From positions 5,878 to 69,877 of the forward strand of contig JACROU010000034.1 of NCBI GenBank assembly GCA_016214265.1: a DNA stretch of 64,000 nucleotides. Reading direction: 5' to 3'. The position numbers were made by a program, and so were the translations under genes. Positions 25,874 through 38,545 of this stretch are shown here, piece after piece (position 1 is the stretch's first letter; every line of letters begins with the position of its first letter). The notes beneath the pieces are model-generated. The model saw only the letters and a program-made list of their open reading frames with translations. It was not told the DNA's origin and did not search any database. The DNA is from Candidatus Omnitrophota bacterium. Lineage in GTDB: Bacteria > Omnitrophota > Omnitrophia > Omnitrophales > JACROU01.

Positions 25874-26875
25874 TTAAACTGATTCCAAAATATATTGAAA
25901 AATAAGCGGCGCGACTATCGTAGCATCCGATTCGATGATGAATCTCGGCGTCTTGGCATCCAATTTTCCCCACGTGATTTTTTCATTAGGAACCGCGCCC
26001 GAATAGGAACCGTACGAAGTAGTGGAATCGGAAATCTGGCAAAAATAGCCCCACAGCTTGCACTCCTCGCGCAAGTCCTGAATAATCAAAGGAACCACAC
26101 AAATCGGAAAATCTCCGGAAATGCCCCCCGCGATTTGAAAAAAACCAATCGTTTCTTTTATGGAATTGGCCCGGTACCAATCGATGAGCGCGGCCATTTG
26201 TTCCAACCCGGATTTAACGACCTGATAATTCGAGACTTCTCCGCGAATCACATTTGCCACAAAAATATTGCCGAGCGTGGAATCCTCCCAGCCTGGCGTA
26301 AAAATGGGGAGATTTTTTTCACAGGCGGCAACCAACCATGAATCTGCCGGATCGATTTGATAATCCGCCTTGATCTCGCCGCTTTTAATCAGCTGGTACA
26401 TGTACTCGTACGGAAAAAAACGCTGTTTCGTCTGATCCGCTTTTCGCCACAGTTTCAGCACTTTTCGTTCGATGCGTCGCATCGCCTCTTCTTCCGGAAT
26501 ACAGGTATCGGTCACCCGGTTCAACCCTGCTTCACGAAGCGCCAGCTCTTCCTCAGCCGTCAGATTCCGGTAATTCGGAACACGCTTGTAATGGTCATGC
26601 GCGACGAGATTGAAAATATCTTCTTCGAGATTGGCCCCGGTACAGCAAATCCCGTGAACTTTATCCTGACGAATCATCTCGGCCAGCGTGATACCCAGCT
26701 CGGCCGTACTCATCGCACCGCCCAACGTCACAAACATTTTCCCGCCTTTTTTCAAGTGGCTGATGTAAGCCTCAGCCGCGTCGACTATAACCGCAGCATT
26801 AAAATGCCGGAAATTTTTTTTGATAAAATCCTTAATTAAGATATTCTTTTTGCCCATAGCCGTCTGAGAAATCAT
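25874..26875 (-). CDS. deoxyhypusine synthase-like protein (DHS family, bacterial homologue)
   Basis: 334 aa from internal Met (MISQTAMGKK...); NAD-binding Rossmann-like layout and motifs reminiscent of DHS (GGAMSTAELG; GICCTGANLEED). Confidence 0.6.
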   Translation of the reverse strand: MISQTAMGKKNILIKDFIKKNFRHFNAAVIVDAAEAYISHLKKGGKMFVTLGGAMSTAELGITLAEMIRQDKVHGICCTGANLEEDIFNLVAHDHYKRVPNYRNLTAEEELALREAGLNRVTDTCIPEEEAMRRIERKVLKLWRKADQTKQRFFPYEYMYQLIKSGEIKADYQIDPADSWLVAACEKNLPIFTPGWEDSTLGNIFVANVIRGEVSNYQVVKSGLEQMAALIDWYRANSIKETIGFFQIAGGISGDFPICVVPLIIQDLREECKLWGYFCQISDSTTSYGSYSGAVPNEKITWGKLDAKTPRFIIESDATIVAPLIFQYILESV

Positions 26876-27693
26876 AGTCTCACCTTTACCATTTTGAGTA
26901 CTGCCAGAATGACAAGCACTGTGCCAAAAACACATATTATTGTAGCCCCTGTCGGGAAATCAAGGAAGTAAGAAATCGTGATCCCCAAAAAGCTCACAAC
27001 CGTTCCGGTGGCCCAACCTAACAAAAGACGGGTGGAAAGTTTCGTCGCAAATAAAATCGCGGCTACTGCCGGAACAATCAGGTACGAAAACACGAGCAGA
27101 ACGCCAGCAATTTGAACCGAACTTGTGACCACAACACCGAACGTGAGATAAAAAACCAAATCCCACAACTTCACATTCATCCCCCGCTGAAATGCCAGCA
27201 CAGGCTTCGTCGAAATAAGAATAAATATCCGCCGGAAATACCAGTGAAACACCCCGAGCAGGCTGTAAAGCAGTAGAATTTTAATAATTTGCGGCACACT
27301 CACGAGCAGGACATTCCCGATCAGCATCGAGCGGATGTGTTCGTCGCCCTCTGCGGAGCGGCTCAAAATCATAATCGCTGCAGCCGCCGCCATCGCGTAC
27401 ACGATTCCGATAATCGCCTCTTGCGGAATTTTTTCATGCCGCGTACGCGTAATCGAAAATATGAGCGCGCCGAGCACGGTCGCCAAAAGCGAAAACCAGT
27501 ACGTAACACTGCTATGAAGTTCGTAGCCGAACAAAATTGCGCAAGTTGCCCCAAGCGCGGCAATCTGAGCGAGCGCAAGATCCACGAAAATAACCTTGCG
27601 CTCAATCACATGAATTCCTAGATAAACATGAATACCAGTGAGAATCAAGCACGCCAGAAGCGGCTTCCACATAATCAGGAAAAAATCATTCAT
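26872..27693 (-). CDS. znuB: ABC-3 family metal (Zn/Mn) ABC transporter permease (ZnuB/TroCD-like)
   Basis: 273 aa, ~8 TM helices, typical ZnuB length and hydrophobicity pattern; adjacent to ZnuA-like binding protein. Confidence 0.7.
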   Translation of the reverse strand: MNDFFLIMWKPLLACLILTGIHVYLGIHVIERKVIFVDLALAQIAALGATCAILFGYELHSSVTYWFSLLATVLGALIFSITRTRHEKIPQEAIIGIVYAMAAAAAIMILSRSAEGDEHIRSMLIGNVLLVSVPQIIKILLLYSLLGVFHWYFRRIFILISTKPVLAFQRGMNVKLWDLVFYLTFGVVVTSSVQIAGVLLVFSYLIVPAVAAILFATKLSTRLLLGWATGTVVSFLGITISYFLDFPTGATIICVFGTVLVILAVLKMVKVRL

Positions 27694-28604
27694 TGGAGCG
27701 CCTGCACGATTTGATTAATGTCATAATCGATCATTGAAAAATAGTCGCCCGCCTCTTTTTTACCGTTTACATTTTGCGTCAAATTTAACAGGCGCGCACC
27801 GGTATCTTTGGAAACTTTTTTGGGAGTCGAAGTTTCATTGAACGGCTCGATGATAATAATTTTCACATTCCGTTCTTTCATCATCCGCTCAAGACCGGCA
27901 AGATGCTTCGCTGTCGGCGGAATCCCCGGTTTCGGCTCTAATTCACCGACCGATTCAAGCCCGAAACGTTCGGTGAAATACGGCCAACTTTTGTGATACG
28001 TGACCACCGAAGCACCTTTACACAAAGCCATCGCAGCCTGCCAGTGTTTCATTTTCTCATCCATCTTTCGGTTAAATTGCTCAAGATTTTGCCGAAAATA
28101 TTTTTCGCTCTCAGGGAAAATTCTGGAAAATCCATCCGCGATATTTCCCGCCATGATTTTCGCGTTTACAGGATCAATCGCGTAATGCGGATTGCCGAAA
28201 GCATGAATATCCCCTTCGGTTCTGGAATACGTTGTCGGAATTTCAAGCAATGGAACGCCCACGGAAGCGTCAATAGCACCCTCATCCTTTTTGAGAAATG
28301 CCGGATTTCCTGCCGCGACAAGCATCGCATCACGCCAGGCTTCCAAATCCAGTCCGCCGTGGACAAAAACACGGGCTTTTTTGAGCATCATCAAATCCTT
28401 CGGATTCGGCTGAATCTGGTGAATGTCCCGAATCGGCGAAGCGACATGATGAACACTCACTTTTTCACCCGCGATTTCGCGGACAAGGCTTTCGAGCGTA
28501 GTCGTTGTCGTCACCACCCGGATTTTTTCTGCTGCAAAAGCACTATGACTTAAAAAAGTAAGCGCGAACAAAAACCAAATTATTTTTCTCATTTTAGTCT
28601 CCAA
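27690..28604 (-). CDS. znuA: metal ABC transporter substrate-binding protein (ZnuA/TroA cluster-9 family)
   Basis: 304 aa, signal peptide, two-lobe TroA-like pattern with conserved His residues (SVHHVASP...HAFGNPHYAIDP). Confidence 0.7.
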   Translation of the reverse strand: METKMRKIIWFLFALTFLSHSAFAAEKIRVVTTTTTLESLVREIAGEKVSVHHVASPIRDIHQIQPNPKDLMMLKKARVFVHGGLDLEAWRDAMLVAAGNPAFLKKDEGAIDASVGVPLLEIPTTYSRTEGDIHAFGNPHYAIDPVNAKIMAGNIADGFSRIFPESEKYFRQNLEQFNRKMDEKMKHWQAAMALCKGASVVTYHKSWPYFTERFGLESVGELEPKPGIPPTAKHLAGLERMMKERNVKIIIIEPFNETSTPKKVSKDTGARLLNLTQNVNGKKEAGDYFSMIDYDINQIVQALQ

Positions 28605-29942
28605 TCATTGAACTGGATGTTTGTCGACACCAATCGTGATATTCGCCTTCAGATAAACCGCATCATCCGTTCTTTCACCAGGAATTCCCGGATCCGAATG
28701 CGTGTACTGAAGAATGAAGCTGGCGAACTCGCTTTCCCACAACGTCACGTAAGGAGAAATCGCCAGCGACGGACGGCCACGGTCAAACGTTTCGAGCGGA
28801 TCAACCACATCAAGCCGGCAGCCTACGCTCCACAACGGGGACATGCGATAATCCACCAGCGTGTAAAAACCCCATGGTGTGGAATTCGCAACAACCAGCT
28901 TAGTGCGGTCTTCCAAATACCATTCGCTCTGAAATTTCAGCGTACGGCCTTCAGATAAATGCCGGATCAATGTGGCGTCCCAGCCCAAGACATGAACTCC
29001 GTAACGGCCCCCTCCTTTGGGACTTTGAACAAAAATTTCCGCACCTGTCGAATCGATCAGAGAACGCGGAATATTTTCATCGCCAAACATCGCGGTGCCG
29101 CCGAGTTCCAAATTCATCGAGTCCCCTAACTCAAAAAATGTTTTCAGGTGCGTATCAAAAATCGGACGCCGGGAAATGCCCGAAAAACTGCTACCGTTAT
29201 TGCCGCGAAGCAGCTCTCCGGAAATTTCCAGCGGAAGATCCCAGGGATTCGAAATTTGATTCGTTAATCGAATGCCCGAAGACGACAAGCCCTCCTCTGA
29301 GAAAAAGTCGCGAATCACAAGCGGATAGTCCACCGTCTCGAGCTGTTCCAGATGAAGCAGGTTCTGCTTGCCGATTTTCGCGCGGAATTTTCCGGCCTTC
29401 GCCGTAAACCCGAGAGGAAGGTCCCAGCGTGTGTAGTAGGCTTCTTCAATGTCAACGTTTTGATCTTCCAGCGCGTCGTTGAAACTGAGTGTGGCATCGA
29501 AACGTGAATATGGATCGACATAAGAACCAAAATTCAGCTCCAGCTCTTTCATCACGATCGTGTCATTTCCGTCCACGTCGTTCGTGTTGTTACGAGACAC
29601 ATTTCCCTGCACCACTCCAACCACACCAATGTCGGGATTGAATCCTTGAGACAGCCCGAAAAATCCGGGCGAGCTTTTCACCGGCTGTGGCTTGCGCGCG
29701 GCTTCAGCTCCCGTTGCAATCTGCCCGATTTTTCTTTCGAACTTATCTTCGAGAGAAATAATTTGTGACTGCTGGGAGCGAATCACTTCGTTTTGATTGT
29801 CCACCGTCGCCCGCAGCTTTTCGACAGACGTCTGCATTTTGATCAATTGATCTTGCAATGATTTCAAAACCTCTTCCTGGGCTTCCGCTCTACCAACGGA
29901 AAGAAGCAGAATGCAGGAGAGGGTCATAACCTGAATGCGCAT
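28605..29942 (-). CDS. outer-membrane porin-like beta-barrel with N-terminal coiled coil (paralog 2, linked to metal uptake genes)
   Basis: 445 aa; signal peptide, long coiled coil (LKSLQDQLIKMQTSVEKLRATVDNQNEVIRSQQSQIISLEDKFERKI), beta-barrel-like remainder. Confidence 0.5.
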   Translation of the reverse strand: MRIQVMTLSCILLLSVGRAEAQEEVLKSLQDQLIKMQTSVEKLRATVDNQNEVIRSQQSQIISLEDKFERKIGQIATGAEAARKPQPVKSSPGFFGLSQGFNPDIGVVGVVQGNVSRNNTNDVDGNDTIVMKELELNFGSYVDPYSRFDATLSFNDALEDQNVDIEEAYYTRWDLPLGFTAKAGKFRAKIGKQNLLHLEQLETVDYPLVIRDFFSEEGLSSSGIRLTNQISNPWDLPLEISGELLRGNNGSSFSGISRRPIFDTHLKTFFELGDSMNLELGGTAMFGDENIPRSLIDSTGAEIFVQSPKGGGRYGVHVLGWDATLIRHLSEGRTLKFQSEWYLEDRTKLVVANSTPWGFYTLVDYRMSPLWSVGCRLDVVDPLETFDRGRPSLAISPYVTLWESEFASFILQYTHSDPGIPGERTDDAVYLKANITIGVDKHPVQ

Positions 29943-29996
29943 AAAAAGACTCCTTACCTGAAATAAGTGTGATTGTGAACTTAATGTCGCAAAAGA

Positions 29997-30284
29997 CTAG
30001 GCAAGTACCGGAGGAGCCCGGTTCTTAAGATGAGAAATAAAGTCGAATAAACCTAATTTCTCGGAGGCAGGTACAGCAAACTTTTTGGAAGAAAAAAGAA
30101 GGCCGGCAATTATGGAAGCAAAAATCAACGAACCTGTAATTTGTTTGACAAAATGACAAACAGCACAATCGGAATGGTCGACACCATCATCGTGATGATG
30201 AAACAACACCGCACCGAATCCTGCCAGAAGAATTAGAGCAAGGAAAATAACGAGGAATTTGTGAGCACGGAAAAACATCATCAT
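29997..30284 (-). CDS. small two-TM membrane protein with His/Cys-rich loop (HHHDDGVDHSDCAVCH)
   Basis: 95 aa; TM1 - metal-binding-like loop - TM2; located between ars operon and Zn-uptake porin. Confidence 0.4.
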   Translation of the reverse strand: MMMFFRAHKFLVIFLALILLAGFGAVLFHHHDDGVDHSDCAVCHFVKQITGSLIFASIIAGLLFSSKKFAVPASEKLGLFDFISHLKNRAPPVLA

Positions 30285-30409
30285 AAAATGACTCCAAATT
30301 AAGACGGCAGTATATCACTACTGTCAAAACAAACCGGCCTACGCAATCACCTAGTCTGAACCGTCCAACAACCGGTCGCCCTAAACGTCCGGATGAGAAA
30401 CAGAAAAAC

Positions 30410-30835
30410 TCAGTCTTCGAACTTTCCTGTCTCTGCAGCCCTTTTGAACTTTTTGTGAATCAAATCCCGGACTTTCCGGAACGCGTCAACCACCCGTTCC
30501 GTAACTTCTTCTCCATGCGGAGGATCGGGAAATGACCAGTGGAGACGAACACAGTTTCCCGGAAAAACCGGGCAGGATTCTTTAGCGTTATCGCAGACAG
30601 TGATTACATAGTCAAAATTCTGACCAGCAAATTCACTGACGTTTTTCGAGCGCTGATGGGAAATGTCGATGCCGATTTCCCGCATCACCTGAATCGCGGT
30701 TTTATTGACGGTTGACGGCCACATTCCCGCGCTCGCAACTTCGTAGGACTCCGCGCCGTAATGCCGGAGAATGCCTTCTGCCATCTGGGAACGGCACGAA
30801 TTCCCGGTGCAGAGAATTAAAATTTTTTTCTTCAT
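30410..30835 (-). CDS. arsC: arsenate reductase ArsC (LMW-PTP / thioredoxin-coupled type)
   Basis: 141 aa; CTGNSCRS P-loop (CX5R) and downstream Cys residues. Confidence 0.8.
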
Positions 30836-31887
30836 CGCATCACCGCATGCTCCGTTTCAACGAAATATTTCTTCTGGAAAAAAAGCGCCGCGTTCACAAG
30901 AAGAATCAGCACCGGCACCTCAACCAAAGGCCCAATCACCGCGGCGAAGGCGGCTCCTGAATTGATCCCAAACACCGCGGCCGCCACCGCGATGGCCAAC
31001 TCAAAATTGTTGCTGGCCGCGGTAAACGAAAGCGTCGCTGTCTTCGCGTAACCCGCACCAAACCTTTTGCCCATATAAAATGAGACCCAAAACATCAGCA
31101 AGAAATAAATCAAAAGTGGAATCGCAATTCTCACCACATCCATCGGAATCCGGACGATGAAGCCCCCTTTCAAGGAGAACATCACCACAATCGTGAACAA
31201 AAGCGCAATCAAAGTCAGAGGACTGATCTTGGGGATAAACCTTGTCTCGTACCACTCCCGGCCCTTAATCTTCAGGCAGAAAAACCGGGTGACGATTCCC
31301 GCGATGAATGGAATGCCGAGATAAATAAAAACGCTTTTCGCGATTTGAGCAATGGTAATCGTGACGGCAGCACCCTGAAGTCCAAACCAGGTCGGAATCA
31401 CCGTAATAAAAACCCAGGCGTAAAGGGCATAAAACAGAACCTGAAAAATTGAATTAAACGCGACCAAACCCGCACAATATTCGGTATCGCCTTGCGCGAG
31501 GTCATTCCAAACGATAACCATCGCAATGCATCGGGCAAGGCCAATCATGATGAGGCCCGTCATGTACGCGGGATAATCTCTCAAAAAAAGAATGGCCAGC
31601 GCAAACATAAGGACCGGACCGATAATCCAGTTTTGTACTAAAGAGAGCGTAAGAATTTTGACATTACGAAAAACATCGCCCATTTCCTCGTACCGGACTT
31701 TGGCCAGAGGCGGATACATCATCACAATCAATCCGATCGCGATGGGAATGTTGGTGGTTCCCACTTGGAACCGGTTCCAGAAATTGACAATTTGCGGACA
31801 GAGGTATCCCAGAGTGACGCCGGCGAACATGCCTAGAAAAATCCAGAGCGTTAAATATCTGTCTAAAAAGGAAAGCTTTTTCATCAC
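30832..31887 (-). CDS. acr3: arsenite efflux transporter ACR3 family
   Basis: 351 aa, ~10 TM, ACR3-like motifs; 4-nt overlap with arsC. Confidence 0.8.
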
Positions 31888-32189
31888 TCCCCTCTCTCAT
31901 TCAAAAATTTACAACAGCCGCCTTCAACCTTGATCGCTTTGAGATTTACCAACGCATCACCGATCTTTTTGTGAGCAGATGCCAGAATCCTGGAAATGGT
32001 CGAGCGATGAACTTTCATTTTCTCCGCTACTTTATCCTGACGAAGTCCTTCCAAATCCGCAAGTCTTACCGCTTCAATTTCATCCAAGGACAGAACAATC
32101 CCGTCCATATCACGTAAAGATTTTCCTGCAGGTCGAAAACAACGTTCTTGAGGCAGGCATCGAACCCACCGTGTTTTTTTAGGTCTCAT
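31884..32189 (-). CDS. DUF134 (UPF0251) predicted DNA-binding protein at head of ars operon
   Basis: 101 aa; [20 protein letters not shown]... N-terminus and [38 protein letters not shown] match DUF134; C-terminal GGCC. Confidence 0.6.
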
Positions 32190-32201
32190 ATGCCCTCGAG
32201 G

Positions 32202-32221
32202 TTATGCACATTTGTGCATAA
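32202..32221. promoter_or_regulatory. perfect 9-2-9 inverted repeat TTATGCACA-TT-TGTGCATAA, 13-32 nt upstream of the DUF134 start codon: candidate operator
   Basis: Read directly from sequence; reverse complement of the left arm equals the right arm. Confidence 0.5.
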
Positions 32222-32469
32222 TAAACCTTCTTAATGTCAGTGTCTATACTTGATTCACTAAGCGTCTTGATTAGACAATACTTGCAATCACGCAGGTAAA
32301 ATTAGGCACATGAGGCCCAAGCCCACTGAAAATTATCTCGCAAATTCTGGTCGGAACTTCTTCATGCGTTCCTCCCCCGCAAGAATATTCAAAATAATTT
32401 CATAATCATCAGCCGGAACGTCCTGTCCCACAGAACAGCCGCCCAATTACACTAATCACAGAGAATTTA

Positions 32470-32793
32470 TCAGAATTCATAAACAATCTCGAGCCGCTTC
32501 AGATAGTGTGTTAGCTCGTTCACACATTGAGCAACCCCATTCGTGTCCTGAGACTTGGCTTGTACTTCCATGCGATCTCCAATTTCTGAAATAAAGTCAA
32601 ACCCATATCCGCCACCGGAACCCTTCAGGATGTGGGCCAGTTGTTGAATAACTTCAAAATTTTTCCGGTCAAGCGCATCGCGAATCAATCTAATGTCATT
32701 TAATCTGTGCTCCAAATATCCAGGAACCAGTGGTTTCAGTTCCCCCTCTACTCTAACCAATATTTTTTGCTCCGAATTTGTAATCATGTTCAC
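32470..32793 (-). CDS. Hpt (histidine phosphotransfer) domain protein
   Basis: 107 aa; HxxKG motif (LAHILKGSGGGYGF). Confidence 0.65.
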   Translation of the reverse strand: MNMITNSEQKILVRVEGELKPLVPGYLEHRLNDIRLIRDALDRKNFEVIQQLAHILKGSGGGYGFDFISEIGDRMEVQAKSQDTNGVAQCVNELTHYLKRLEIVYEF

Positions 32794-34789
32794 TAATTTC
32801 CTTCTTTCCGTCCTCCCTGGACTGCATTTGTTCTTGGATTACATCAAGCAGCCGCTGTTTCTTGATTGGTTTAGTGATATAAGCCGTAAATCCCGCATCG
32901 ATACTTTTCTGAACTTCTTCCTTTAAGGCTCGCGCTGTCAAAGCGACGATCGGAACTGAATCTCGCCCCTGTTCTTTTTCCCAATTTCGAACCGCGTGGG
33001 TTGCGGCATAACCATCCATCACAGGCATTTGAATATCCATCAAAACGATGTCGTAGTGATCGGATTGAATTTTCTCAACGGCTTCTCGGCCATCACAGGC
33101 AAAATCCAGTCTCCAAGAAGTACCTTTTAAATAGGCCTGAATTAATATCTGATTATCCTGAACGTCTTCGGCCAATAGAATGTGAAGGGGCTGGACAAAA
33201 TTATTTTGCGGGACGGTTTCCTTAAATTCGGGGCCTTGAACCTTATCCTCACGCTTAGCTAACGTTGATGTGATCATATTAAATAAGTCCATTTTCCTTA
33301 TGGGCTTCAACAAATAGCCGCTTACTCCAAGCTTCTGAGCCCGGGCTATATCTCCATAACGTGCATCAGAGGTCAGCATCAAGATAGTTATCCGCTCGCA
33401 ATGGGACTCTTTCTTAATTTCTTCAATTAATTGAAATCCATCCATGTTGGGCATTCGACAATCAAGTAACAATAATTGATAGGGGTGATTCGCGGCGATG
33501 CTCCGCTTTAGTTCACTAATAGCGGCTTCACCACTCGCCGCCTGAGTTACTTGCGCTTCCCAAGATTCCAGAATGCGGTTAAGTATCAGCCGATTAGTTG
33601 CATTATCATCCACCAAAAGAACGCTTAGCCCCTTCAAACTGCTGATCGAACTTGTCTCTTGTATTGATCCTCCCTTTTGAATTTCGAACGGGAGCGTTAC
33701 ACAAAATGTGGTTCCCTGCCCCAATTGGCTTGTGACTTCAATTCCACCGCCCATCCGCTCCGCAAGTTTCTTTGATATCGTAAGCCCGAGACCGGTTCCA
33801 CCGTACTTTCGAGTCGTGGAAGCATCTGCTTGTGTAAAAGGATCAAAAATTTGCTTCAACTTCTCATTTGGAATTCCGATACCGGTATCTTTTACGGAAA
33901 ATAGAAGACGGCATTGATCCTCTGTCTTTTCGGCGGATGTTACTTCAAGCACTACCTCTCCTTTTTCGGTAAACTTTAAAGCATTGCCGATCAGATTGAC
34001 CAAAACCTGCTTCAATCGATTTGAATCTCCCATGAGTTTAGTTGGTACTTCAGGCAGTATCTGAAAAGCCAGCTCCAGCCCCTTCGCATGGGCACGATAA
34101 GCCACCAATTCCATGACCTGCTCGCACAACTCTTCAAGATTAAACCAGGCCTTCTCAAGCTCCAGATTTCCAGACTCTACTTTGGAAAGATCAAGAATAT
34201 TGTTAATTAAATTCAAAAGCGTTTCCCCGCCGTTTTTCAAAATCCGAACATACTCTCGCTGTTCAACGCTAAGGGGCGATTCTTCCAGAAGGTCCGTCAT
34301 TCCAATTACGGCATTCATCGGTGTGCGAATCTCATGGCTCATTGTAGCCAGAAACTCTGATTTTGCCCGAGACAGTTCCAAAGCAATATCTCGATCCTGA
34401 CGGAGCTGGCTTTTCTCAAAAGCCTTTTCAACTATCACAAGAATTTCACTTAATTCATAGGGTTTTTGAAGCAAATCATACGCCCCCTTTTTCATTGCCA
34501 TAACGACATTTTCAACGCGGGCATAGCCTGTTACTACGATAAATTCCAGATAAGGATAGATTTTCTTCGCAGCTTCCAGCAATTCCAAACCATCCATCTT
34601 GGGCATTTTGATATCAGTAATGACTACTTGGAAATTTCCATTTTTTATCTTTTCGAGAGCGTCTTCACCATCACAAGCGAAGGAGGCCTGGTACCCCTCT
34701 TCCTGTAATTCATAGACAAGAAAATCTCTCATTCCCGGCTCATCATCAACAACAAGAATCCTTTTATGGTTTTGGTCTTTTAATGTCAT
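32753..34789 (-). CDS. hybrid sensor histidine kinase: REC-HisKA-HATPase_c-REC-REC
   Basis: 678 aa; three receiver domains (ILVVDDEPGM...; VLLVDDNATNR...; ILLAEDVQDNQ...), H-box SHEIRTPMNAV, G-box GGTGLGLTISK. Confidence 0.8.
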   Translation of the reverse strand: MTLKDQNHKRILVVDDEPGMRDFLVYELQEEGYQASFACDGEDALEKIKNGNFQVVITDIKMPKMDGLELLEAAKKIYPYLEFIVVTGYARVENVVMAMKKGAYDLLQKPYELSEILVIVEKAFEKSQLRQDRDIALELSRAKSEFLATMSHEIRTPMNAVIGMTDLLEESPLSVEQREYVRILKNGGETLLNLINNILDLSKVESGNLELEKAWFNLEELCEQVMELVAYRAHAKGLELAFQILPEVPTKLMGDSNRLKQVLVNLIGNALKFTEKGEVVLEVTSAEKTEDQCRLLFSVKDTGIGIPNEKLKQIFDPFTQADASTTRKYGGTGLGLTISKKLAERMGGGIEVTSQLGQGTTFCVTLPFEIQKGGSIQETSSISSLKGLSVLLVDDNATNRLILNRILESWEAQVTQAASGEAAISELKRSIAANHPYQLLLLDCRMPNMDGFQLIEEIKKESHCERITILMLTSDARYGDIARAQKLGVSGYLLKPIRKMDLFNMITSTLAKREDKVQGPEFKETVPQNNFVQPLHILLAEDVQDNQILIQAYLKGTSWRLDFACDGREAVEKIQSDHYDIVLMDIQMPVMDGYAATHAVRNWEKEQGRDSVPIVALTARALKEEVQKSIDAGFTAYITKPIKKQRLLDVIQEQMQSREDGKKEISEHDYKFGAKNIG

Positions 34790-35387
34790 CTGACTTCACC
34801 TTCTTCTTTGTTGAGATCCCCAAATGAAATGCCACTCTTTCTTTAAGCTCTTCAAGATCAAAAGGCTTTCCAACATAATCATTTGCACCCAAATCTAAAA
34901 CTCTCTTTTTAACCTCCGGCGCCAACAGAGCACTCATAGCAATAATTTTCGTCCCGCTAAATTCTGAATGTGCTCTCACGAATTCCAAAACGTGAAAACC
35001 GTCAAGTCCAGGCATCATCAGATCAAGGATAACGAGATGAGGACGAAATTCATGAATTTGCCAGCCTGCATGGAAACCATCCCTCGTTTCTTCAATCAAT
35101 ATATCTGAAAATTCTTCCTCCAAATTCCATCGAATCATGTGGGAAAATTCTTCCTCATCATCGACAATCAGCATCCTCGGTTTTTCTTGATCCGCAAACT
35201 CTGCAGGAACAGATATTCGTAATGTTTTAAGAAATACGATGAGGTCTTTCACTTCGACCCGATGATGGCCTCCTGCGGTCAATGACGCTTGCAATTTCCC
35301 TTCCTTAATCCAACGGAATACGCTGCCTGGAGATACGTGGCAGAATTTCGCAACTTCAAAGGTTCCAAGATATCTCTCCATTTCCAT
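34764..35387 (-). CDS. response regulator with N-terminal excisionase/MerR-like HTH and C-terminal receiver (reversed domain order)
   Basis: 207 aa; N-terminal YLGTFEVAKFCHVSPGSVFRWIKEGKL (HTH_17-like) then MLIVDDEEE...ILDLMMPGLDG receiver. Confidence 0.6.
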   Translation of the reverse strand: MEMERYLGTFEVAKFCHVSPGSVFRWIKEGKLQASLTAGGHHRVEVKDLIVFLKTLRISVPAEFADQEKPRMLIVDDEEEFSHMIRWNLEEEFSDILIEETRDGFHAGWQIHEFRPHLVILDLMMPGLDGFHVLEFVRAHSEFSGTKIIAMSALLAPEVKKRVLDLGANDYVGKPFDLEELKERVAFHLGISTKKKVKSDDIKRPKP

Positions 35388-35484
35388 TCTCCATCCTGTT
35401 TATCATCTATAGCATGTTTAACACGTTTGAATGGTTTGAATATTAAGGAGAGATTAAGAAGTGTTAATCTTCGGGAAATATTTG

Positions 35485-35874
35485 TTAGCTTCGTGCGGCT
35501 GATGGGGGAATTGCGTCTAAAGCCTGGCTAACCGTTTTAATAAGCTCGTCCATGTAAAAAGGCTTTTTGAGACAGCTCAGACTGTGACGATAAGCTTCCT
35601 CAAGCCTGCCTTCAACAGCGTAGCCTGTAATAAAGATCACTTTTTGGTCAGGATTTTCTTTATGAAAAGTTTCTATCATTTGCACACCGTCCATATGCGG
35701 CATGCGAATATCCGTTATTACAAGATCAAAGCTCTGTTCATGCAATATTTTGAGTCCCTGGCCGGCATCTGAAGCAGTAACTACTTCATAGCCCTGGCCA
35801 CTCAACTCAAAAGCCAGCAAATCGCACCAGCCCGGCTCATCATCAACAACAAGAATTTTTATTTTTTTCAACAT
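35485..35874 (-). CDS. single-domain CheY-like response regulator
   Basis: 129 aa; ILVVDDEPG...DLVITDIRMPHMDG...KPF. Confidence 0.75.
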   Translation of the reverse strand: MLKKIKILVVDDEPGWCDLLAFELSGQGYEVVTASDAGQGLKILHEQSFDLVITDIRMPHMDGVQMIETFHKENPDQKVIFITGYAVEGRLEEAYRHSLSCLKKPFYMDELIKTVSQALDAIPPSAARS

Positions 35875-35879
35875 AGTTT

Positions 35880-36269
35880 TTATAGTGAAGTTGGAAGTGG
35901 CCCCAGTACTTTTTCAAGCGCCAGTTGGATATCAACGAGATCAACCGGCTTATAAAGACACGAAACGGCCCCTTCTTTTAAAACGCGGCTCTCGAAAATT
36001 TTTTCTGGATCAGGGAGACTGGAAAACATGATAACTTTCTGAGAAGGACGAATTTGTTTGATCTTTGCTAAAGCTTCATGACCTGACATAACAGGCATAT
36101 GCGTGTCCATTAAAACCACATCATATTCCTTTATCTCAATCTTTTTGACCGCTTCCAGGCCGTTCTCGACGGATTCCAGTTCAAACCCCAATGGCTCAAG
36201 AAGAAAAGCATACATATGCAACAAGCCCTCTTCGTCATCAACAACCAGTATCGTTTTGTGAAATTTCAT
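35880..36269 (-). CDS. single-domain CheY-like response regulator
   Basis: 129 aa; ILVVDDEEG...DVVLMDTHMPVMSG...KPV. Confidence 0.75.
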   Translation of the reverse strand: MKFHKTILVVDDEEGLLHMYAFLLEPLGFELESVENGLEAVKKIEIKEYDVVLMDTHMPVMSGHEALAKIKQIRPSQKVIMFSSLPDPEKIFESRVLKEGAVSCLYKPVDLVDIQLALEKVLGPLPTSL

Positions 36270-38545
36270 ATTGCCACAATTGGCAAAAGCACCTGAAAAA
36301 CAGTACCTTTTCCAACCTCGCTCTGAACATCAATTCTGCCGCCATGCCGCTCGATAATTTCGTGCACGAGTGAAAGCCCAAGCCCCGTTCCTTTTCCAAC
36401 TTCTTTTGTCGTAAAAAATGGGTTGAAGATTTCAGGCAAAACAGCTGGGGGAATTCCCGCTCCGTTATCCTCAACATCTATTGCAATCCAATTATTTCCC
36501 TGAAATAAAACTTTTCTGGTCGAAACGATAACTTTACCACCCTGCGGCATCGCATCAATCGCATTGTTACACAAATTAATCATAACCTGCTGAATTTGAT
36601 TTTGATTCGCCACGATCTTTGGAATCGTCTCGTCCAATCTTTTTTCGATTAGCACATTCGTCACTCTTCCCTGAGGAAAAATCAACGTAAGCGCCCCGTC
36701 AATTGCTTGATTTAGATTAATTTCATCTTTTCCGGTTTTTTCTACTCTTGAAAATGTGAGGAGGCTCTGCACAAGCGTCTTGCACCTGAGCGCTTCCCGT
36801 TCAATTGACTTCAAGGGCATTTCCAGGGGGTCTTTTGGCTGCATCCGCTTGACCAATCCTTGAGAAAATCCCAAAATGATTCCCAGAGGATTATTAATTT
36901 CATGGGCAACACCGGCAGCAAGCTGTCCAACAGCAGACATTTTTTCTGATTGCAACAACATATTTTCCAGCTTCTGTTTTTCAGTAACGTCTCGCAAAAC
37001 AGCAGTAAAAATCAATTTACCTTCCACGATAGTCTTGGAAATAGTTATTTCACAAGGAAATTCTTCTCCACTTTTCCTAAGACCAAATAGCGCCCCGTGA
37101 TGCTCACCTATCATTCGAAAAGAAACTTCGCCCTCACCAAATTGCTTTACATGCAGACGGTGTTTCTCTCGAAACCGCTCCGGCATAAGCATCTCAAGCG
37201 GCTGTCCAAGCACTTCTTCATTTTTATATCGAAAAATTCTTTCTGCTTGGTTATTAAAAAGTATAATTTTCTGATTCTCATCAACGGAAATAATCGCATC
37301 ACTGGCCGAGTCTAAAATATTCTGTAAGCGTGACCGTGATGAGGAGAGTTGCCCTACATAATCCTGAACTTTCTCTGTCATATTATTAAAGGCATGCCCC
37401 AGATCTTCGACTTCATCCTTCGACTCAACATTCACCCTTTTTGAAAAATTCCCATGGCCGATTTCTTGAGCAGTCTCAGTTAGTTCACGCAATGGGCGGG
37501 TGATTCTCCTTGCAAATACCATTCCAATGAAAGCAACAAAGATCGACACAAGTATGGAGAAACCCGCCAATTGATAGGCCAAGTTTTTGACTGATGCAAA
37601 CGCTTCACGCGATCTCACAAAAACAAAAACGCTCCAACCAGTTCCCTTAAACTCCCGGAACCCCTGAGAGCCGCAATAGCCAATAAGCCATTTCTCACCC
37701 TTGAGATCCCTTTCAATCGCAAAACCCGATTTTCCTTGCAAAGCTAAATCAATCGATTTCATCCCCAGGGAATGAAGATTGTATTTAAACAGATATTCGG
37801 GATCACTCATAGTTCCCGTTCCAGCAATTAGTTTTCCTTCGCGATCTGTTAATACCGCGTAGGAGGACGCCCCCTCTCCGGAAATCCGCACATCGTTCGC
37901 AATATCAAAAATCTCACTCCAGTTTAAATGAAATGACAACAAACCAATAATTTTATCGGGGTCTGCATGATTGAAAATGGGGAATACAATTTCCAATGTA
38001 TCCGCTTCAAGGGGTTTGAAATATTTGAAACTATAATTAATTGTGTTCTTTTGCTTTAATGCGTTCTGAAACGAAACCTTATCCTCCGCTTCCCAGCCGA
38101 TAAATTCCGGCAAACTTGAAGCAATCACTTTTCCATGGACATCATAACAAAGGATCGCACCAAAAATTCCGTGTGTTGTTGCAATATTTTCAAGGGCTTT
38201 AGAAATAGCACCGTGCGGATCATTTTCAAGGACGGCCTGCATAAGATCCGATCTGCTCCATGTTTCGGCTAATTTATTGACGATAAAAATCAGCCGGTCG
38301 ATTTCATCCATCGTGTGATACGACAAATCAGCCAATTTTTTCCCAATCGAGATTTTCAAAACGGATCCCGATTTATAAAAAGAAAGTACAGTACCGCACA
38401 ATGAAGTGGATAGTATGCTAATGACTAGAATCAGAATGAATTTTTGAGCCAGACGCAGTCGAATCGAGCTAAGAATAGAGCTTACCCTGCGTCCGAAAGG
38501 ATAATTATTCAAGCTCATATCCTTCTTCGCCGGGCAATTTGCCAT
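36266..38545 (-). CDS. sensor histidine kinase with periplasmic Cache-like sensor, HAMP, PAS, HisKA, HATPase_c
   Basis: 759 aa; TM - ~280 aa extracytoplasmic domain - TM - HAMP - PAS - HEINNPL H-box - GTGLGLSLVHEI G-box. Confidence 0.8.
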   Translation of the reverse strand: MANCPAKKDMSLNNYPFGRRVSSILSSIRLRLAQKFILILVISILSTSLCGTVLSFYKSGSVLKISIGKKLADLSYHTMDEIDRLIFIVNKLAETWSRSDLMQAVLENDPHGAISKALENIATTHGIFGAILCYDVHGKVIASSLPEFIGWEAEDKVSFQNALKQKNTINYSFKYFKPLEADTLEIVFPIFNHADPDKIIGLLSFHLNWSEIFDIANDVRISGEGASSYAVLTDREGKLIAGTGTMSDPEYLFKYNLHSLGMKSIDLALQGKSGFAIERDLKGEKWLIGYCGSQGFREFKGTGWSVFVFVRSREAFASVKNLAYQLAGFSILVSIFVAFIGMVFARRITRPLRELTETAQEIGHGNFSKRVNVESKDEVEDLGHAFNNMTEKVQDYVGQLSSSRSRLQNILDSASDAIISVDENQKIILFNNQAERIFRYKNEEVLGQPLEMLMPERFREKHRLHVKQFGEGEVSFRMIGEHHGALFGLRKSGEEFPCEITISKTIVEGKLIFTAVLRDVTEKQKLENMLLQSEKMSAVGQLAAGVAHEINNPLGIILGFSQGLVKRMQPKDPLEMPLKSIEREALRCKTLVQSLLTFSRVEKTGKDEINLNQAIDGALTLIFPQGRVTNVLIEKRLDETIPKIVANQNQIQQVMINLCNNAIDAMPQGGKVIVSTRKVLFQGNNWIAIDVEDNGAGIPPAVLPEIFNPFFTTKEVGKGTGLGLSLVHEIIERHGGRIDVQSEVGKGTVFQVLLPIVAI

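Follow-up and report, generated by a model that had tools for sequence, protein, structure and literature searches.

An arsenic-resistance operon on the minus strand of a 64,000-nucleotide stretch of Candidatus Omnitrophota bacterium DNA (contig JACROU010000034.1, positions 5,878 to 69,877; the whole stretch is called the window here) opens with a gene of the DUF134/UPF0251 family, in the place normally held by arsR, and continues with acr3 and arsC. We propose that the DUF134 protein is an autoregulated, As(III)-responsive repressor of this operon, and consider the mechanism as a whole to be probable; the narrower claim, that the protein is an operator-binding regulator of the ars operon, we put forward with considerably more confidence. 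The proposal is built on the gene order, the overlap of promoter and operator, the conservation and uniqueness of the operator, its co-variation with the recognition helix of the protein, a set of cysteines specific to one clade, and the linkage to ars genes in related genomes, all of which can be read directly in the sequences. What appears to be new here is a non-homologous replacement of ArsR.

The three open reading frames (ORFs) overlap at their neighboring stop and start codons, and DUF134, acr3 and arsC are predicted to be a translationally coupled unit. The operon and its control region are laid out as follows:

30410..30835, minus strand: arsC, arsenate reductase of the LMW-PTP type (thioredoxin-coupled type), 141 amino acids; its ATG overlaps the acr3 stop codon
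30832..31887, minus strand: acr3, arsenite efflux permease, 351 amino acids; its start overlaps the DUF134 stop codon
31884..32189, minus strand: DUF134/UPF0251 helix-turn-helix (HTH) gene, 101 amino acids, Pfam PF02001; proposed arsenic-responsive repressor
32193..32197, minus strand: Shine-Dalgarno-like GAGGG, read from the sequence, 5' of the DUF134 start codon
32202..32221, unstranded: operator palindrome TTATGCACA-tt-TGTGCATAA, the proposed site of a DUF134 dimer, at about -12 to +9 of the promoter
32218..32223, minus strand: -10 hexamer TATTAT, the last four bases of which are the first four bases of the palindrome
32241..32246, minus strand: -35 hexamer TAGACA of the ars promoter, a sigma-70-like pattern match

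The palindrome has 9-nt arms of 100% complementarity separated by a 2-nt spacer, and lies 13-32 nt 5' of the ATG (32189-32187, minus strand); its full 20-bp sequence is TTATGCACAAATGTGCATAA. An initial annotation, made from the letters alone, had singled out this 9-2-9 palindrome at this distance from the ATG and thought it to look like an autoregulatory operator, and it had placed a DUF134-type HTH protein with RCLP...RCFRP and GGCC motifs in the position of ArsR, with no ArsR/SmtB gene present. The perfect arms, the protein motifs and the lack of an ArsR/SmtB gene within the 64-kb window all proved correct, and the operator gains support from its position, its overlap with the -10 hexamer, its uniqueness and the co-variation described below. 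The only sigma-70-like promoter in the region 29900-32600 is TAGACA-17-TATTAT (32246..32218, minus strand), with 10/12 positions matched; since four bases of its -10 hexamer also belong to the left arm, the likely transcription start lies inside the palindrome. Repressors, as opposed to activators, classically have this layout, in which the operator covers -10 and +1 of a near-consensus promoter; by it the gene would correspond functionally to an ArsR-like regulator, one that opens an ars operon and regulates itself through an inverted-repeat operator at the promoter. Elsewhere in the window there is no match to the palindrome at up to three mismatches, where shuffled sequences give an expectation of 0.01.

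The question of whether this arrangement is conserved was addressed in two sets of relatives. A protein search returned 814 relatives, the best 120 of which are 64-74% identical and, where named, come from Omnitrophota; a scan of one genome per GTDB species gave 386 loci, and the best 80 of these (60-73% identity) were examined with 6 kb on each side. Counts out of 81 refer to these 80 loci and the window. Going by the taxon labels of the metagenome-assembled genomes (MAGs), about half of the 80 loci belong to Omnitrophota, and the others to Planctomycetia, Auribacterota, Thermodesulfovibrionia, Pseudomonadota, Elusimicrobia and further groups.

Palindromes of the type TAATGCACATATGTGCATTA / ATGCACATATGTGCAT are found 9-36 nt 5' of the DUF134 start codon in 79/81 loci, at a distance of 12-24 nt in all but two of these, and the DNA around them is not conserved. 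The strict pattern ATG[CA]A[CT]A-NN-T[GA]T[GT]CAT has 58 matches in the 748 kb of loci, every one of them 5' of a DUF134 gene, and a single match in the window. A TTGACA-16/17-TATAAT promoter with its -10 hexamer overlapping the left arm is present in 68/79 homologous loci, and GGAG or GAGG stands at the place equivalent to that of the Shine-Dalgarno-like element. Degraded operators were seen in two loci, L015 (5880-6000), with the right half-site TGTGCATAA alone, and L030, with ATGCACCTATGTGCGA; these may represent relaxed regulation, or junctions of assembly or rearrangement.

The product of the first gene scores 71.8 bits against PF02001 (gathering cut-off 27), residues 2-92 aligning to profile positions 6-94 of 98, and carries the motifs R-C11-L-P, R-C17-F-R-P and G-G-C92-C93. 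It is identical to GenBank MBI4970874.1 from a Candidatus Omnitrophica MAG, which is named only "DUF134 domain-containing protein"; relatives that have a database name are called either this or "predicted DNA-binding protein (UPF0251 family)". The score of 60.7 bits against NCBIfam PRK04217 (NF003257) falls below the equivalog cut-off of 115, and because of this we assign the protein to a distinct subfamily of DUF134. Neither of the ArsR-type domains, HTH_5 (PF01022) and HTH_20 (PF12840), is among the ten Pfam families matched at E<0.01, and a protein without this defining domain is not a member of the ArsR/SmtB family. The matches to the generic HTH families Sigma70_r4, HTH_23 and HTH_3 are below threshold. 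The protein is no sigma-70 factor either (Sigma70_r4, 20.9 bits against 24.1; TIGR02937, 24.8 against 42.9; region 2 lacking), nor a SorC/DeoR repressor, with which it has the HTH alone in common, stopping at residue 101 without the effector domain of about 250 amino acids.

No solved DUF134 structure was found, the available matches being at the level of the HTH only, to DeoR and sigma region 4. The closest solved structure is the DNA-binding domain of DeoR from B. subtilis (7bhy; profile E=2e-4, 38% identity over 40 residues), and the fold match of the DUF134 HTH to this domain has a root-mean-square deviation of 0.5-0.7 A. An AlphaFold2 model (mean pLDDT, the predicted local distance difference test score, of 85) has strands at residues 8-10, 17-20, 29-33 and 85-88 around a three-helix HTH at 35-82, and the recognition helix lies at about residues 61-68 (HRSTISRI). 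Together these comparisons point to an HTH akin to those of DeoR/SorC proteins and of sigma region 4.

Recognition helix and operator vary together across the loci. Wherever the half-sites are unaltered TGCACA, the helix reads H-R-S-T-[IV] at residues 61-65 in window numbering (46/46 loci, window included); TGAACA half-sites go with S-R-P-T-F (14/14 loci), and TGCATA half-sites with H-Q-S-T-I (10/10 loci). Operators of mixed half-sites have intermediate helices, as in L071 (GAACA..TGTGC with S-R-S-T-F) and L078 (GCATA..TGTGC with H-P-S-T-I). The change of R62 to Q is paired with a change from G:C to A:T in the operator, which fits the common preference of Arg for guanine and of Gln for adenine.

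A further argument for direct reading of the operator is provided by DeoR, a member of the SorC family (7bhy, 8r7y); its crystal structures show the helix ISRPTVSR contacting specific bases of 5'-TTGAACA-3' within the palindrome TTGAA-CAAAAT-TTCAA (PMC11229326). The DUF134 class with the nearly identical helix ISRPTFSR sits at ATGAA-CATATG-TTCAT, so that the half-site core and the six-base spacing of the DeoR site (TTGAA-N6-TTCAA) recur in the clade. By analogy, this parallel is independent support for the proposed direct recognition of the palindrome by a DUF134 dimer through its HTH. The likeness ends there: DeoR is a tetrameric sugar-phosphate sensor of 313 amino acids with a large C-terminal effector domain, whereas the DUF134 protein has 101 amino acids, different flanking strands and, presumably, a sensor based on cysteines.

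Linkage of DUF134 to ars genes in other genomes, a check suggested with the initial annotation for acr3/arsC, is almost without exception in this clade. Genes in the loci were called as simple ORF picks, neighboring ORFs were clustered, and representatives of the clusters were scanned against NCBIfam and Pfam. An ars gene lies directly 3' of DUF134 on the same strand in 73/75 loci with at least 1.2 kb of downstream sequence, and in 74 after inspection of L074, where a gene-calling miss had hidden ArsP-Acr3-ArsC. The recurrent operon consists of DUF134 and genes for an ArsP-family permease (ArsP_1 PF03773, 257 bits), ArsM (356), an ArsE-type thioredoxin-like protein (105), ArsF (119), ArsG (280), Acr3 (ACR3, 409-468 bits) and ArsC, in varying order. 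The first gene after DUF134 is ArsP in 55 loci, Acr3 in 14, ArsM in 3 and ArsF in 3; Acr3 proteins of two lineages that share only about 30% identity both follow DUF134, and more divergent DUF134 members precede Acr3 (P0124) or an aquaglyceroporin (P0125). Given the variable next gene, the two Acr3 lineages and these divergent members, the linkage is to arsenic function and not to one syntenic block. The homologous loci hold exactly the genes of described arsP-arsM-arsEFG-acr3-arsC clusters for organoarsenicals and arsenite; to our knowledge, the described clusters are headed by an ArsR-family gene, whereas those of the clade are headed by DUF134 and the window has only the minimal acr3-arsC pair. 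Second DUF134 paralogs occur in L032, L058 and L029, for example as a 107-residue ORF after arsC (L032) and a 157-residue ORF at the start of L058.

The pump and the reductase of the window are readily assigned. Acr3 scores 468.4 bits against TIGR00832 (equivalog cut-off 282.8) and has the SBF fold in Pfam. ArsC matches LMWPc (PF01451) with 81 bits (cut-off 23); its best-scoring NCBIfam family is TIGR02691, the pI258 thioredoxin-coupled type, at 136 bits and below the equivalog cut-off of 174.3. The protein has cysteines at positions 9, 14, 81, 88 and 95 and Arg15 in the P-loop C9-TGNSC-R15-S, so that the CX5R P-loop cysteine and the two downstream cysteines of the disulfide cascade are present (Cys9, Arg15, Cys81, Cys88); we take the corresponding cysteines of pI258 ArsC to be Cys10, Cys82 and Cys89.

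There is no ArsR/SmtB-like ORF in any frame of the 64-kb window (phmmer with three ArsR/SmtB sequences, E<0.01; a four-sequence profile, E<50), nor were ArsR/SmtB homologs detected within 6 kb on either side in 79/80 loci by a six-frame search; this is a good but not an exhaustive test. The sole ArsR/SmtB-like gene near the 80 DUF134-ars operons (L076:5387-5710, minus strand) is divergently oriented and encodes a single cysteine, which makes a role as an As(III)-sensing ArsR unlikely. In a 2025 paper the regulators of ars genes are all types of ArsR, the "new types" being ArsR proteins with relocated cysteines (PMC11868830). The initial annotation had not regarded DUF134 proteins as established arsenic sensors, and our search of the literature agrees: we found no paper linking DUF134, UPF0251 or COG1342 to arsenic, in a search that did not extend to subscription journals, so that a prior report is possible.

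The cysteines of the protein are a property of the ars-linked clade. Among its 81 members Cys11 is conserved in 80/81, Cys17 in 80/81, Cys92 in 78/81 and Cys93 in 81/81. A HMMER search of 1.84 billion cluster representatives recovered 3413 members of the family, and the best 150 representatives were compared for their cysteines. The ars-linked clade accounts for about five full-length representatives, after which identity falls clearly, to 45-55% in ordinary DUF134 proteins; the Cys92-Cys93 doublet is found, among the best 150, only in sequences of the ars clade and fragments of them, and 111/150 have no cysteine at any of the five positions (these four and residue 22), the residues there being mostly Phe, Tyr, Asn and Val/Tyr/Phe. 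Since the divergent ars-linked members retain Cys11, Cys92 and Cys93 and lack Cys17, conservation comes down to a minimum of three thiols, two of them vicinal. Known As(III) sites are formed by Cys95, Cys96 and Cys102 in AfArsR and by Cys15, Cys16 and Cys55' in CgArsR, and the two sites evolved independently of each other, each at its own location in the ArsR fold (PMC11868830). By sequence, Cys11/Cys92/Cys93 would correspond to the arrangement of these sites, three cysteines of which two are vicinal.

We therefore picture the DUF134 protein as a possible functional analogue of ArsR on an unrelated fold, namely a sigma-70-region-4/DeoR-type HTH with short N- and C-terminal strands. A dimer would grip the 20-bp palindrome through the helix H61-R62-S63-T64-I65-S66-R67, and its occupancy would block RNA polymerase, because the site covers part of the -10 hexamer together with the likely transcription start. 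Trivalent arsenic would enter the cell directly or arise from arsenate via ArsC, and would be bound by Cys11 and the vicinal Cys92-Cys93 as a three-sulfur site, with Cys17 as a possible fourth ligand; binding would alter the conformation or the geometry of the dimer, and the repressor would leave the operator. DUF134, acr3 and arsC would then be transcribed together and translated as a coupled unit, with ArsC supplying As(III) from arsenate to sensor and pump alike. In this scheme we infer that the protein dimerizes, that it represses rather than activates, that arsenite is the ligand, and which cysteines bind it.

In comparison with the ArsR repressors (R773 ArsR, AfArsR of A. ferrooxidans, CgArsR of C. 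glutamicum, and ArArsR), the DUF134 gene is likewise the first of an ars operon, predicted to be co-transcribed with a pump and a reductase, and its product is likewise small, a proposed dimer on an inverted repeat at its own promoter, with derepression expected from As(III) and with at least three cysteines including a vicinal pair (compare Cys95-Cys96 of AfArsR and Cys15-Cys16 of CgArsR; PMC11868830). The two have no kinship in sequence or fold, the DUF134 protein having the tri-helical HTH of sigma-70 region 4 and DeoR instead of a winged helix, its cysteines lying in the region of the N-terminal strands and at the very C-terminal end, and its operator sequence being different.

Alternative explanations keep parts of this scheme and give up others. 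The DUF134 protein could be an operator-binding autoregulator for which the signal differs, be it methylarsenite (MAs(III)) or aromatic arsenicals, antimonite, or thiol or redox stress, or which needs a partner protein; we regard this as unlikely, while giving it some weight. Most operons of the clade are rich in organoarsenical genes (ArsP, ArsM, ArsEFG), and MAs(III)-selective ArsR proteins are known (PMC11868830). A fifth cysteine is also suggestive: Cys22 ('PQCK') is present in 69/81 clade members, where the window protein has Gly (codon 22, 32124-32126), and it goes with ArsP-first operons (52, against 7 that are Acr3-first), being missing in Acr3-first operons such as that of the window (7, against 3 that are ArsP-first; the incomplete locus L022, also without Cys22, has a partial Acr3 match by tblastn as an eighth Acr3 case). 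Through Cys22 the range of ligands might be adjusted toward inorganic or organic arsenicals; the pattern is confounded by phylogeny. The operon of the window, however, has acr3 and arsC alone, both for inorganic arsenic, and the conserved triad C11/C92/C93 fits the need of As(III), whereas MAs(III) requires two thiols only (PMC11868830). As for a partner, proteins of the wider DUF134 family are fused or adjacent to NifX-like domains, but those of the ars clade have lost all C-terminal extensions, and the only conserved partner genes are ars genes.

Alternatively, the cysteines could form a structural Zn (or Fe-S) site for folding or dimerization of a regulator that is constitutive or otherwise controlled, the arsenic response coming from elsewhere, for example from an ArsR outside the window; this we consider improbable. 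C11, C17, C92 and C93 could make up a Zn(Cys)4 site, zinc-ribbon tails (CxxC...CxxC) are frequent among DUF134 proteins in general, and the visible genome amounts to 64 kb. Divergent ars-linked members without C17 are nevertheless left with three cysteines, and the set is confined to the ars-linked clade; no ArsR is found within 6 kb per side in 79/80 loci, and the neighbor in L076 has one cysteine. A regulator that always heads ars operons and yet ignores arsenic would, moreover, be hard to explain.

That the palindrome is no protein operator at all, and would be an inverted repeat arisen by chance, a hairpin or attenuator acting in RNA, or a terminator belonging to the gene upstream, can be dismissed with near certainty. 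Short AT-rich palindromes are common in intergenic DNA, and a hairpin could form in single-stranded nucleic acid. Against this reading are the 0.01 chance matches expected in the window, a primary sequence, beyond mere pairing, that about 79 loci have kept with constant spacing to the -10 box and that co-varies with protein residues, a predicted start in mid-palindrome that would leave one arm only in the mRNA, and a separate terminator-like hairpin at 32320-32302. An RNA element was rejected because Rfam, at E<1, matched nothing in 29900-32600 but the histone stem-loop, at chance level and inside acr3. A terminator was rejected because no T-run follows the palindrome, because conservation concerns its sequence and not its pairing, and because part of it falls in the -10 box.

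Several points weigh against an As(III)-responsive repressor. The evidence is wholly computational, and the source organisms are all uncultured MAGs or single-amplified genomes. The helix/operator classes mostly coincide with three clades in a neighbor-joining tree calculated with the helix masked, and the association therefore represents perhaps 2-4 independent changes, not 81; taken by itself, the co-variation would count as strong but not overwhelming evidence. One homolog, in L020, has a perfect operator and unrelated genes downstream (L020:4884-7434 encodes a small secreted Gly/Pro-rich protein, a 72-residue Cys-rich ferredoxin-like protein, and ORFs of 131 and 332 residues). The As(III) site is a proposal from the sequence, in which Cys11/17 and Cys92/93 would be close in space, within or between subunits; to judge from sequence, the four or five cysteines could equally be a structural Zn or Fe-S site, and the wider DUF134 family is associated with metal-cluster proteins of the NifX/Mrp type. 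An ArsR encoded elsewhere in the genome, outside the 64-kb window, is possible.

Ordinary members of DUF134/UPF0251, found in Clostridia, plasmids of Enterobacteriaceae, archaea and other groups, share with the ars clade the PF02001 domain, the N-terminal MRPxxxR...P...F.P motif and the EGG motif; unlike it, they are without the Cys11/Cys92-Cys93 set, usually have C-terminal Zn-ribbon or NifX-like extensions, and adjoin genes of the NifB/NifX family and for Mrp/MinD ATPases instead of ars genes. No published function was found for them in the literature searched. The E. coli plasmid pKL53-L and a plasmid of Peptoclostridium acidaminophilum have neighborhoods of the NifX/Mrp type, and a metagenomic contig has unrelated neighbors; ars linkage as a property of the whole family was rejected on these grounds. 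In L088 (5995-6751) and L089 (4995-8724) the DUF134 gene is followed by genes for Mo-Fe-cluster-binding proteins of the NifB/NifX family and ATPases of the Mrp/MinD type (MrpORP), and the DUF134-NifX-Mrp arrangement is present on 194 plasmids, including many conjugative plasmids of Klebsiella, Citrobacter and Escherichia. Repeats centered on CATATG also stand 5' of these ordinary genes (L088:5835-5997, L089:4835-4997), with two copies of GCATATGCCA in pKL53-L, and TTGACATATGCCA with its reverse complement TGGCATATGTCAA in Peptoclostridium. This suggests that the whole DUF134 family may autoregulate through related sites.

One further element was noted 5' of the ars promoter:

32302..32320, minus strand: terminator-like hairpin with a T-run, a 6-pair stem followed by TTTTACCTGC; pattern match only

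This hairpin would insulate the ars operon from read-through of the upstream two-component cluster; in the region, two terminator-like sites were found against 3.7 expected from shuffles. The two-component signaling cluster lies directly upstream, beyond the hairpin (32470-38545, minus strand), and comprises an Hpt protein, a 678-residue ORF with receiver and histidine-kinase-like motifs, a 207-residue ORF, two single-domain receivers and a 759-residue ORF with histidine-kinase-like motifs; the Hpt protein was scanned against Pfam, and the remaining ORFs were judged from their translations. On the other side, 125 nt 3' of arsC, is the gene for a 95-residue predicted membrane protein (29997-30284, minus strand) with a His/Cys-rich stretch, HHHDDGVDHSDCAVCHF, and no Pfam match. 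It is not conserved beside the ars operons of other loci, and probably belongs with a 445-residue protein (28605-29942), which has no Pfam match, and with ZnuA/ABC-3 metal-uptake genes (26872-28604).

A broader view of the family can be offered tentatively, and we think it less likely to be right than wrong. In it, DUF134/UPF0251 proteins as a whole would be one-component repressors acting on CATATG-centered palindromes through a DeoR-like HTH, with interchangeable sensor parts, and the ars clade would be an independent invention of an arsenic sensor. The interchangeable parts may be tails with a Zn ribbon, NifX-like domains that bind clusters and are either fused to the protein or adjacent to it, or, in the ars clade, just a small number of cysteines placed at positions of the hydrophobic core. 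The ars clade would then be a non-homologous arsenic sensor widespread in Omnitrophota and neighboring candidate phyla, in which Cys22 might tune the response to As(III) in Acr3-first operons and to organoarsenicals in operons with ArsP/ArsM/ArsEFG.

Arsenic sensing in prokaryotes is usually taught as a matter of ArsR/SmtB proteins, and here an unrelated family with no function to its name appears to hold the job across a candidate phylum. If the proposal is true, it would provide the first function for DUF134, at least for one branch of the family, and a further convergent thiol-based metalloid switch, built on another DNA-binding scaffold. Surveys that count arsR genes would miss the regulator in Omnitrophota and their relatives; and a repressor of about 100 amino acids, a defined 20-bp operator and three natural helix/operator pairs would be at hand for orthogonal arsenic biosensors.

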